NCBI GenBank assembly: GCA_951406725.2
Contig: OX597837.1
Coordinates: 620,001-684,000 of the forward strand
Reading direction: 5' to 3'
DNA: 64,000 nt
Source: Octopus vulgaris
Taxonomy: Eukaryota
The position numbers were made by a program, and so were the translations under genes. Shown here piece by piece: positions 51,215 to 55,450 of this stretch. Under the pieces are notes generated by a model that was given only the letters and a program-made list of their open reading frames with translations, did no database searches and was not told the origin of the DNA. How positions within the stretch are numbered: the first letter of the stretch is position 1; each line of letters begins with the position of its first letter.

Positions 51215-51376
51215 ACGCAAGCGTGGTTGTGTGGTATGAAGCTGGATTCTTAACCATATGATTCTAGGTTCAGTCTCACTGCGCGGCACCTTGGTTATGT
51301 GACTTCTGCTATAGCCTCGAACCGACTAGACCTTTTGACTGGACTTCGTAGACGGAAACTAAAAGAAGGCCATCGG
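51215..51376 (+). mobile_element. SINE family A 5' half (3' half at 55165-55450), split by HERO insertion
   Basis: Head to GGAAACTAAAAGAAGGCCATCG; the sequence resumes with the microsatellite and tail after 55164. Confidence 0.8.
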
Positions 51377-51438
51377 AATTACAACCGTGTTTCGTGGTCT
51401 GCTACCACAACAGCTCCTTTATAGGATCCAGTTAGCTC

Positions 51439-51490
51439 AAGACATCATCAGGAGGAACCACGTCCGGTTTCGGCCCCTAATCCTCTACCG
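51439..51490 (-). ncRNA. Non-circularly permuted (pseudoknotted) hammerhead ribozyme
   Basis: CGGTA^GAGGA-TTA-GGGGCC-GAAACCG-GACGTGGT-TCCTC-CTGATGA-TGTCTT. Stem III CGGT/ACCG, stem I GAGGA/TCCTC, stem II GGGGC/GTCTT with wobbles; core intact. Confidence 0.75.
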
Positions 51491-51816
51491 TTTTGACATG
51501 GCGCCCTCCCCCTTTCGGAGGTGTCTTCAGCTCTGGTGTTGGGTGCATGTCTTCTTTCTTCTTCTTTCTTCTGTTCCCTGGCCTCTTCGATGTATCGTCA
51601 GCGAGTGTCAGCCAGTGACTGACTGTCTTGTCAAATTTCTCCGTTTAAATACCTGCCGCATAGTCTCGAGCAGGCAGCCCCAGCAAGTTGTCACGTGACA
51701 CTGTCTCACCTTAACTGACTAGCGAAGGCGCGTAGTTTTAGCCCGCGCTTTTTCTAAACGACCGTCACCTGTCAGTCAGCGAAGCTGATTCAGTCAGCTT
51801 GTCTCACCTAATGATG

Positions 51817-54800
51817 TTATTTCCCGTCGGCGTGTTTATGACTTTCAAGCCATTTTTGGTCTTCCCGCTTCAGCCATATATAGAAGCTGGCTTTTTCGAC
51901 CGCCTCCTGTACTCTCCTTATTAGTTTACGCAGCTCGGGGCTAGAAAAAACAAATCTTCTTTTGAAAAGCGTTCTCATTTTCTTTTCAATGAAACCTCTA
52001 GCCCCGACTGCCAGGTGATAATATTCGACATTCCATCCCTGTTCTCTGCATTCTTCGATTAGCTTTTCATACCTCTTCTCCTTTCGTTCCTCTGCGTTGC
52101 CGATGTTCTCTTCCCCAGGTTCTGTCAGTTCTAGTAAAATTCCCATTCTCCGGTCTCTGTTCCATAGAACTAAATCCGGTCTTTTTGTTGTTTTTATTAG
52201 TGGAAATATTACTTGTCTTTCCAAGTCCGTGGCCATCTCCCAGTATCCCTTCCATCTTTCGTCTATCTCGTATACTTTACTTGTAGGCCTGGTTTTATAA
52301 CCTTTTCTCTCCTTGTGGAAATATACTTTCCTGCGCTTTTCTACTTTTGGGTACTCTCCCCTATTGTACCTCTCGATCTTCTCCTTGAGTGCTGCGCTTA
52401 TGACACCGAGGACTTGATTATGCCGCCATGTATATCTTTCAAGTGCTAGTCTGCAACCTGACAGAACATGTCTAACCGTCGCTTTCTCTCCGCATCTACA
52501 CTCATCGGTTTTGTTTATGTTCCACCGGACTAAGTTCGCCGGTGAGGGTAGAATGTCGAAGGTAGACTTGATCAAGAAGGATGTTCTTGCTTATTCCCAA
52601 GCCCAAATTCCTTCCATGATATTCTGCGGCTGATCACATATTCCTCCCATCTCGGGCACTGTCCCTGTTGACTGCATTGCACCAAATGTACATTTCGCCT
52701 TTCTTCTTCCTCCTTTCTCTCTTTCATCTCTTTTACACTGCTCTTGCAAAATGGCCTGAAATTTTGCGACCCTAGGCCGGTTCTAGCTTCTTGCGTCGCT
52801 CCGACTATATCTGCGTGCTTTAGTTTTCCGGTTTCCCTGTTTACTGCCTCTTCCGCCTTCCATTTCCTCCCTGTTCGTACCTTTGGAGGGTTTTCCCGGA
52901 TGCTCTGATCTTTTGAATACCTTAGCATCATTACTGTCCTTACCTTTCCTGCCTTACATTCTTCGGCGATTGATGTTATTGGTAGTTACAGCACGGGTTG
53001 TATTCAGTGGTTTCGGCAGACCAAGCCATTTTCTGATAAACACACTGCATCTTTGCTCCATCCTTTCTACTCTACTCGAGGCTATTTCGTACATTTTCAA
53101 TGGCCACATTATCCTTGGGTACAGCCCAAATTGCAGTATCCAACATTTGAATTTTCCCGGCAGCGTTGTTCTGTCAATTGCCTTTAATCCTTGTTCTACT
53201 AACTCGTGTGTTTCTTTCCCTTGCTTCTTATCATTTGATAAATCTCTATACCATCTGCCGAGACTCTTTACTGGTTGTTCTTTCACCGTTGGTATGTCTT
53301 CACTTCCTATCCTGAATTTCACTTCTTCTTGCCTTCCTTTCACGAAAGCCACGCTTCGAGATTTTTTGGCTTTGAATTTCATCACAGTTTGTAGATCTGA
53401 GTAGCATTTCCATGACTAGCACGAATAAGATGACTGATACAGTGCATCCGGCTGCAATACCTATTTCAAGCCGTTGCCACTCCGTTGTGAACTTTCCTGC
53501 TGTACATCTCATCCTCAGGTTGTCGTAGTACGACATTAGCATTCGTTGCACATCTTTTGAAATCCAAAAGAAGTCCATCGCTGTCTTTATTATTGCGTGC
53601 GGAACAGATCCATAAGCATTGGCAAGATCTAGCTAAACAATATATAGGTTTTTCTTCATTTGTTTTGCACAGGTGATGGCTTCCCAGATGGAAAATGCGT
53701 GAACTATGCACCCAGGGATTCCGGAGATTCCTGCTTTTTGAATCGCTTCATTAACGTATCCGCTATGCTGTACGAATCTTATGATTCGTCTAGCAATTAT
53801 TCCGAACATGATTTTTCCGTCTGTATTTAGTAGTGAAATCGGTCTAAATTGGCCTAGTGTTTTTGCCTCTTTTTCTTTAAGGTAGATAGATACCTTCGGC
53901 TATACACCATCGCTCCGCTACATCTTTCTCCTTCCACATTTCTCTTATCAGTGCAAACAGCTGCAATCGTAATTTTGGGCAATATTTATATACCTTGTAG
54001 CTCACTCCATCGTTCCCTGGTGCACTTTTTGCTCTTGCTTTCCTTATGAACTCATCCATTTCTTTCCGTTTGATGTCGCTCAAATCAAATGGTACTCTTG
54101 GTTCAGGCGGTTTCTTCAGTCCGTGCATTTCTGGGAGTACTTCATTTCTGTCAGAGTCGCTGTATGTCTCTTTCAGATGTTCGAGCTCTTCTTTCGTGCA
54201 ATCCAATTTTCCACTTTTACTTTCAGTAAATAGATGTTTCGCATATTGATAGGGATTGTTCACAAAGCTACGATAGTTTTTTTCCCTCTCCTTTCTTCTG
54301 CTCCTCCTTCTTTGTTTTCTTAGCAGATCTCGATGCCTCTTTTCTATCTCTTCATATAGCTGCTTTAGCCCTTCTCTTTCCTCCTCCTTTGCATCCCTCC
54401 ATCTGGTTCTGAGTTTTTTCTTCTCTTCTCGAATCTTTGCGATCCGTCTTTCTCTCCTCGATGGTCCGATCTTTGCCGTTGATTCTACCTTCCCTGTTGT
54501 TTCCAGTCCAAATCTTTTCTCTCCTTCCTGGTAGATTGTATTAGCCAGGTTTTCGAGCTTTTGTTCGTCGTCGCCTTTGAATTTGGTGGTCATTCTTCCT
54601 ACCTCGTCGTCAAATTTTTTATGACTCGCCGCGTCATATGCTTTCGGCCACTTAACCTTTGTCCTCTTCACGCCTATCAGTCTTTTTGACTGTTCCAATT
54701 CAACTGTGGAATGAACCTCGCTATGGTTATTTTCCGGGGTGTTCTGGCCACACCTCTTATGGTTTATCAACCCGCGTTGTTGAATTACTTTCTTCTGATA

Positions 54801-54880
54801 CACCTTCCTTTCGTGTATTCTCACCTTCCCTTGGTGTAACTAGCAAACACCTTTCCGCAGCAGCTGAATTCCTCATCTAC
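51817..54880 (-). pseudogene. HERO ORF (RT + CCHC + restriction-like endonuclease), frameshifted with deletions
   Basis: RAKSAPGNDGVSYKVYKYCP, QFRPISLLNTDGKIMF, QKAGISGIPGC, LDLANAYGSVPH, GIAAGCTVSVILF, MKFKAKKSRS, LPGKFKCW, DILPSPANLVRW..CRCGEKATVRHVLSGC..RYTWRHNQVL, RPDLVLW..ELT..ERKEKRY. Confidence 0.9.
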
Positions 54881-55164
54881 CATTCCTATACCGTTTCCTT
54901 TCTCATTGTCCATTTCCGGTCCAAGTCCATTTCGTTTTTTCCGTCCCTATTTGATCCTTTATTCTCCCCCCGTGGTCCGGGATCATGGGTGCATGATTTC
55001 CCATGTTTTTTCGTTTCAATTTTAGCCCGGATCGGGCTGCAAGCCCATTTGATCCTTCATTACGCTGTCGTACTGTCAAGCGTCCCTCCGCTTTGTCATC
55101 CCTCTTTCTGGATTGTCAGCAAGTCTTTCCCTGCAGTCAGTATCTGAGGGATTACAACCGTGTT

Positions 55165-55165
55165 G

Positions 55166-55218
<53 letters not shown>

Positions 55219-55450
55219 GTATATATATATATATATAGGTATGTATGTGAGAGGTTCTTTGTCACCCGCCATCGCTTGATTTGACAACCGTTGCTGGTGT
55301 GCTTACGTTCCTGTAACTTGTCGGTTGAGAAGAGACCGAGAGAAAAGGCACCACGTTTTAAAACAATATGTACAGGCGTCGATGATTTCCTCTAAAAATT
55401 TAAGGCGGTGCCCCAGCATGGCCGCAGTCCAATACTTGAAACAAGTAAAA
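55165..55450 (+). mobile_element. SINE family A 3' half
   Basis: CCATCGCTTGA..GCTGGTGTG..GGCGGTGCCCCAGCATGGCCGCAGTC..GAAACAAGTAAAAG. Confidence 0.8.

Follow-up and report, generated by a model that had tools for sequence, protein, structure and literature searches.

The window analysed here is a stretch of 64,000 nucleotides (nt) of Octopus vulgaris DNA (GenBank assembly GCA_951406725.2, contig OX597837.1, positions 620,001 to 684,000 of the forward strand). Our subject is an element on its minus strand at 51375-55164, which we take to be a HERO-like long interspersed nuclear element (LINE) with a restriction-like endonuclease (RLE), the HERO label being provisional and following a first-pass annotation of the window. 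Head-to-tail junctions are the rule in the family of this element: a piece of the element's own 3' end (the front piece) stands before the start of the unit, the 3' end is fixed, and only the 5' overshoot varies. The reading that we favour, at a probability of about 0.6, is that unit RNA running from cut to cut of a ribozyme is circularised and reverse transcribed just over once around. A hammerhead in the 3' untranslated region (UTR), predicted to self-cleave, would release unit-length RNA, which ligation at the cut would then close into a circle; reverse transcription, primed internally at the junction, would then proceed little more than once around the circle, leaving a partial tandem with a fixed 3' end and a variable front piece. 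The circular RNA itself we infer from the genomic copies.

The repeated 14-mer and the head-to-tail junctions

The 14-mer ATTACAACCGTGTT is found without mismatch at 51378-51391 and again at 55151-55164, elsewhere in the window it has no match with fewer than two mismatches, and between its two occurrences lie the remnants of a minus-strand LINE, encoding a reverse transcriptase (RT), a zinc-knuckle and an RLE. The first-pass annotation had noticed this repeat, the position of the element inside a short interspersed nuclear element (SINE), the absence of a poly(A) tail, and some 95 nt between a ribozyme cut and the repeat (94 nt as measured), all of which we find as well; the 3' end, which it placed at about 51392, is in fact at 51375, taking in the 14-mer and TCC. 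A search of the 2.8-Gb genome with the 3' region produced 3581 candidates, and in the 40 that were scored, the 14-mer is present in every 3' end (40/40), at unrelated flanks, the copies ending exactly at the equivalent of 51375 in 29 cases and within 51371-51377 in 37. The 14-mer is the family's own 3' end and thus element sequence, as had been suspected from the window alone.

The simpler alternative, an ordinary target-site duplication, is suggested by the perfect direct repeats at both ends of the element, and its probability is now close to nil, as the 14-mer stands in all scored 3' ends at unrelated sites and is missing from the rebuilt empty site. The host SINE is split into ...GAAGGCCATC (to 51374) and GTATACACAC (from 55165), and the site rebuilt from these flanks, GAAGGCCATC-GTATACACAC, is an ordinary SINE tail without the 14-mer and without duplication, matching the SINE tails at 2042, 38292, and 44937 of the window, which equally lack the 14-mer. 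Nor are duplications regular in the family: flank repeats of 6-7 nt are seen in 4 of 25 two-ended copies, mostly as AT runs, and mismatched flank pairs give up to 4. The 3' flanks are unrelated among copies, indicating no fixed target sequence, and an absence of target specificity is likewise given for HERO in PMC4640811. Three independent insertions, the window copy among them (L001, L061, L062; L-numbers denote individual fetched loci, genomic copies or relatives) lie within 2 nt of one SINE position, and L009 and L094 sit in SINE microsatellite tails; the three at one position were found with a query containing SINE sequence, and no site preference is claimed.

As to the 5' side, a search with the 5' region gave 86 candidates, of which 40 were scored. 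Six of seven segmental duplicates on C29 were left out of the counts, as were the rearranged tails of L082 and L093. Among the independent copies, 28 extend into the unit's first 10 nt, and a front piece of the copy's own 3' end is present in 25 of them. The junction reads TTCC followed by TCAGATAC. In the full junction table, which includes three copies picked by the junction pattern, it is free of indels in 27 of 28, and the front piece measures from 9 to 1009 nt, with a median of about 220, the window copy (17 nt) being at the short end. The comparison of copy ends that the first-pass annotation had proposed thus came out in favour of head-to-tail junctions; of the variable permutation points that it expected, the variation is seen in the 5' overshoot and not at the 3' end, which is fixed.

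Some further observations belong here. The seven C29 matches (L095-L103, G000:C29:17.0-18.05 Mb) represent one insertion multiplied by segmental duplication with kilobases of flank. Three independent 5' ends (L055, L058, G000:C4:35155995) fall at about nt 69 of the unit, at the foot of a short hairpin that is likely an RT stop, and two 3' ends (L225/L226, G000:C4:137.87 Mb) are inverted about 760 nt apart. A cut at the unit junction itself, after TCAGATA, was considered and rejected: no ribozyme fold fits there, and 5' ends are not piled up (3 copies, at unit nt 5, 6, and 10).

The window copy is a dead, decayed full-length copy, with frameshifts, stops, and the RT active site lost; it carries further deletions of 17 and 18 nt near 52999 and 52719, and one substitution in its 17-nt 5' repeat. 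Its features, including those of its single open reading frame (ORF), are as follows.

51218-51374, plus strand: host SINE body, of approximate start, with ...GAAGGCCATC as its last bases before the insertion (from the sequence and other SINE tails in the window)
51375-51391, minus strand: family 3' terminus AACACGGTTGTAAT-TCC, likely the internal priming site of reverse transcription (from copy ends and 3' flanks)
51375-51816, minus strand: 3' UTR (the last ORF piece has its stop codon at 51817-51819)
51439-51527, minus strand: rewired hammerhead fold (from covariation)
51485-51486, minus strand: CGGUA^GAGGA, where self-cleavage is predicted, with 111 nt left to the 3' end (from structural analogy with hammerheads and a weak excess of 5'-truncation points)
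51817-54900, minus strand: single ORF, broken by frameshifts and stops, with N-terminal region, RT, CCHC knuckle, and PD..E restriction-like endonuclease; 5' limit approximate
53381-53384, minus strand: site of a private deletion of about 122 nt, with loss of the RT motif FMDD
54901-55147, minus strand: 5' UTR, the unit start TCAGATAC being at 55147 (from the junction alignment of 28 independent copies)
55148-55164, minus strand: 17-nt overshoot, a copy of the 3' end of the element itself, joined head-to-tail to the unit start, with the second 14-mer (55151-55164) inside
55165-55238, plus strand: rest of the host SINE tail, GTATAC-(AC)n-(AT)n, without target-site duplication

One template, probably primed internally

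Comparison of the two pieces of each copy indicates that the front piece is copied from the same template as its own tail. In 12 copies, 58 derived bases are common to the front piece and its own tail over 2046 unmasked columns, a number reached by 1 of 20,000 permutations, owing partly to the presence of old and young subfamilies; alleles private to the two pieces of one copy number 5, versus 0.27 expected from foreign pairs. Compared as classes, front pieces and tails reveal no fixed difference at any position. One telling example is presented by mini-units that have internal deletions, measure 360-900 nt, and were inserted as 1.1-1.4 rounds (L083, L089, L092, L094, L107, L113). In all of those with a front piece long enough to show a deletion junction, namely L089, L092, and L094, the internal deletions are different, and each deletion junction is repeated in both rounds; as the front piece contains the junction, it is not merely inherited from the front piece of a parent. 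The mini-units themselves are non-autonomous derivatives of a retrozyme-like kind.

Reverse transcription was likely primed internally, as judged from what follows the 3' ends. The base after the terminal TTCC is T in 33 of 42 unselected 3' ends, and a match of 5-8 nt to the unit start follows in 3 of the 42, two of these insertions having lengths of 1.9 and 3.7 kb. In the genome, 133 matches to the junction pattern are found versus 6 for a control, and 16 of 20 fetched matches are 3' ends that stop after TCAGATA(C). Since the unit start follows directly upon such 3' ends, the template would continue past the junction at which copying starts, suggesting that priming is internal.

Two side observations touch the priming site. 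In L111, L115, L125, L069, L005, and L009, the last 3-4 template bases (GATA, ATA, GAT, TCC, TTCC) recur as short repeats that make up the tail, as expected from slippage at initiation. A long predicted stem, at 55160-55090 of the window, has the priming site in its 5' arm and its 3' arm in the 5' UTR, and thus could form only across a head-to-tail junction; its 5' UTR part is conserved in L129, L133, and L147.

A hammerhead-like fold and its predicted cut

A second metagenome scan produced 71 relative loci, many of them ending inside the ORF; a first scan with a single protein and a scan of viral contigs had found nothing. The best solved-structure matches of the relatives' profile are the R2 proteins 9nl2, 9nl3, and 9dou, and a single ORF with RT, CCHC knuckle, and C-terminal PD..(D/E)xK-type endonuclease, an organization shared with the HERO clade, is intact in L144, L136, L152, and L155. 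Contigs of four runs that we guess to be RNA cover most of the element and are deepest at the 3' end, with ends, strand, and circles not visible in them.

A descriptor with the order site - GAAA - CUGAnGA matches 18 of the 71 relative loci in sense, none in antisense, and none in 20 shuffles. In the window, the corresponding fold places the predicted cut between 51486 and 51485, which is 94 nt upstream of the 14-mer and 111 nt upstream of the 3' end, and has the following parts, all on the minus strand.

51527-51522 and 51444-51439: helix IV, 5' and 3' strands
51521-51508: hairpin V
51505-51501 and 51477-51472: stem II, 5' and 3' strands
51501-51495 and 51464-51458: extra stem, b and b'
51490-51486: stem III strand and cleavage triplet GUA
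51471-51465: GAAA and stem III
51485-51480 and 51457-51452: stem I and I'
51451-51445: CUGAUGA

Pairing was assessed in the window and 17 relatives, giving 18 rows without redundancy and leaving out the near-identical L142, L153, and L165, and L172, an antisense chance match of a looser scan, with pairs counted from anchors, as a MAFFT alignment misaligned the stems. Stems I, II, and III show pairing in 88/90, 70/72, and 71/72 positions, with many pair types, and 0 of 5000 partner shuffles reach these rates, which are inflated by the selection of rows by descriptor. Stem b and helix IV are outside the descriptor, and they have 136 pairs versus 84.5 and 83 versus 50.9 in partner shuffles, every shuffle being beaten; helix IV has at least 4 base pairs in 13 of the 18 rows. 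The core motifs, counted in rows that were chosen by a descriptor holding them, are A15.1-U16.1 and G10.1-C11.1 (18/18 each), A, C, or U at H17 (18/18), and GAAA (17/18). By these counts, covariation across distant elements is seen in the hammerhead core as well as in five further helices, and self-cleavage after GUA is predicted by analogy with hammerheads.

The wiring is unusual in that the 5' strand of stem II is upstream of the cut, the bases after CUGAnGA close helix IV, and hairpin V stands between helix IV and stem II. The type-SGC position for the stem II 5' strand, directly after CUGAnGA, was rejected, being paired in 30/72 versus 32.9 when shuffled, with a first G-C pair in 1 of 18. 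Rfam covariance models, hammerhead types I-III included, found no match in the UTRs, and readings of the UTRs as hammerhead types I-III, HDV-like (hepatitis delta virus), twister, or pistol ribozymes were likewise rejected, as Rfam gave no match and inspection by eye revealed no consistent stems. The G-run that separates hairpin V from stem II (window 51501-51514, about 79 genomic copies) is hypervariable, through both substitutions and length changes, and is usually unlike between the front piece and the tail of one copy, reflecting RT slippage, later instability, or sequencing error.

Most templates appear to have been continuous across the predicted cut. As many as 927 genomic copies cross it with intact spacing, by a pattern that fixes the spacing and to which indels are therefore invisible, and the first 100 listed of these have substitutions only. 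A pattern for copies without the upstream stem gave 55 matches versus 4 for a control, and 27 true 5' ends, after three rows (L225, L250, L255) were reclassified by eye. Of these ends, 14 fall on the 6 positions, out of 19, that lie no more than 3 nt from the cut (P 0.02, or 0.004 without four likely chance matches), hinting at cleavage at the predicted site; a test over four windows gave 6 ends versus 1, 1, and 4 (P 0.09, not significant). The insertions with 5' ends at the cut are all short and tail-only, which is what priming on a linear cut RNA, 111 nt from its 5' end, would produce. With a detection rate of about 0.375 taken into account, the copies ending at the cut number about 37, that is, some 4% versus about 96% crossing.

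A proposed circular template and its rivals

The simplest candidate for a template that is continuous across junction and cut, with priming at the junction and copying that goes just past one round, would be a unit-length circle sealed at the cut. In the first-pass annotation, a tandem or circular template copied slightly more than once by way of a ribozyme had been proposed; the head-to-tail junctions of the family and the conserved fold support this proposal. As copying in the window stopped after 17 nt, the window copy has one ribozyme only, and could not have made a circle. The relatives also speak for this reading: the N-terminus of the ORF follows the fold head-to-tail in 7 of 19 sense-strand loci with the fold, L129 and L133 have the same junction by DNA similarity, and L143, L144, L145, and L152 are circular or terminally redundant contigs. 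There is precedent for the separate steps: in vitro, RtcB closes hammerhead-cut monomers of retrozymes into circles (PMC7229834), and for a Penelope element internal priming is described together with partial tandems (PMC11167929).

A number of points weigh against a circle. No copy with at least two rounds is seen among the full-length and mini copies fetched (0/6 for the mini-units), and of the head-to-tail arrays that the first-pass annotation had envisaged, none with at least two full units is seen. Four of 28 front pieces start at 152-158 nt, at the 5' edge of the ribozyme, suggesting a possible transcription start for linear RNA. At the cut, 5' ends are only weakly enriched. As to the fold, known hammerheads tolerate only 1-2 nt between A9 and G10.1, according to PMC10085705, and here the direct link of 0-2 nt between A9 and stem II is replaced by helix IV and hairpin V; the window copy has mismatches in stem II and stem I, and its nested minimum-energy fold is a different, non-hammerhead one. 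The contigs of the relatives, being collapsed metagenome assemblies, demonstrate that the junctions exist, and not the structure of single copies. Lastly, cleavage, ligation, and the circle are predictions from DNA.

The rival that survives best, though we consider it unlikely, is that the ribozyme cuts and covalent closure of the unit RNA never takes place, the two ends being held by the ribozyme helices (or belonging to two RNAs of one locus), and that the RT, once at the 5' end, jumps over to the 3' end, as the RT of R2 does. Such a jump would account equally well for front pieces identical in origin with their own tails, for the repeated deletion junctions, and for the run-on 3' ends, and a failed jump would leave just the small excess of 111-nt insertions that start at the cut; a few indels are also found near the cut (L201, L034, L212, L246). 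End-to-end jumps are, however, expected to add or lose bases far more often than is suggested by the predominance of crossing copies and by the substitutions-only record of the first 100 listed.

Less probable again is a scenario in which the source copies are true head-to-tail arrays, produced by unequal exchange between front piece and tail and perhaps collapsed in the assembly, whose uncut multimers are primed internally, the fold being protein-binding or rarely cutting. Arrays in heterochromatin are often collapsed, a local threefold tandem of a ribozyme-region piece of about 88 nt does exist (L255:~1330-1840, G000:C26:25.72 Mb), and the circle, for its part, is only deduced. The scenario also comes close to an idea on partial tandems reportedly published for Zebulon, a HERO-clade element of pufferfish, whose full-length copies reportedly have a partial tandem structure. 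However, no locus with two junctions is found among the full-length and mini copies fetched or the first 100 listed of the 133 junction matches, three unrelated mini-units would each need a dimer of their own, and a catalytic core that is invariant across elements only 40-60% identical in protein argues for cleavage.

Strand transfer of the type known from long terminal repeat (LTR) elements seems quite improbable. Transcription would start inside the front piece, the RNA would be terminally redundant, and cDNA at the 5' end would anneal to the matching 3' UTR and continue. The cluster of four front-piece starts would suit this, and seamless junctions are expected when transfer is guided by homology, but it leaves unexplained the long insertions L065 and L069, in which the 3' end passes directly into the unit start, and a cutting ribozyme would part the priming site from its template.

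The circular reading can also be set against known systems. Type-SGC hammerheads (Eckert et al., 2023; PMC10085705) have in common with the present fold the order site - GAAA - CUGAnGA, a link of 2-3 nt between stems I and II, and an extra stem joining the far sides of these stems. In type SGC, however, the 5' strand of stem II comes after CUGAnGA rather than upstream of the cut; helix IV and hairpin V here interrupt A9 and G10.1, a break assumed impossible in that paper; and type SGC comes from metatranscriptome circles, as opposed to animal LINE 3' UTRs. Penelope-like elements (PMC11167929; PMC6765202) are alike in their partial tandems, hammerhead in the repeated UTR, internal initiation, and proposed circular intermediates, and they differ in possessing a telomerase-like RT, a GIY-YIG endonuclease, and type I hammerheads, in place of an R2-superfamily RT and an RLE. 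In non-LTR retrozymes (PMC7229834; bioRxiv 10.64898/2026.07.22.740005), hammerhead-cut monomers give rise to circles and these to tandem copies, as we propose for the present family; retrozymes are of 170-400 nt, non-coding, and of type I, as opposed to an autonomous unit of 3.9 kb with an ORF, and the mini-units are the nearer analogue. R2 shares the RT-RLE protein, ribozyme-processed RNA (with cleavage here predicted), and target-primed reverse transcription, and differs in its 5' HDV-like ribozyme, in priming at the RNA 3' end, and in its single rDNA site.

The partial tandem is probably already known, from Zebulon. In the literature searched, which took in the supplement alignments of Eckert et al. 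by word search and did not extend to Weinberg 2015, cited for hammerheads with additional helices, we found neither a HERO ribozyme nor this wiring, no description of internal priming or a circular template for HERO, and no evidence of the present kind for copying that is primed internally and goes more than once around one and the same template. The wiring is thus putatively new.

The usual view of LINEs is that they copy linear RNA, starting at its 3' end. The genomic copies of this family appear instead to record internal priming, a template continuous across the unit junction and the predicted cut, and a front piece derived from the same molecule. The widest form of our proposal, which we rate an even bet, is that HERO LINEs may be protein-coding retrozymes: a hammerhead of undescribed topology, open within its catalytic core and held across the cut by a clamp of four helices, would release and reseal a unit RNA of 3.9 kb, an R2-superfamily protein would prime internally on the covalent circle, and an animal-wide clade of autonomous LINEs would replicate via circular RNA, rebuilding its processing signal at each round. 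If the circle is real, it would provide a mechanism for the partial tandems long noted in the HERO clade, link the RLE LINEs to the route of Penelope and the retrozymes, place a hammerhead wiring outside the six block orders given by Eckert et al. (PMC10085705), and present an R2-family enzyme working on circular templates.

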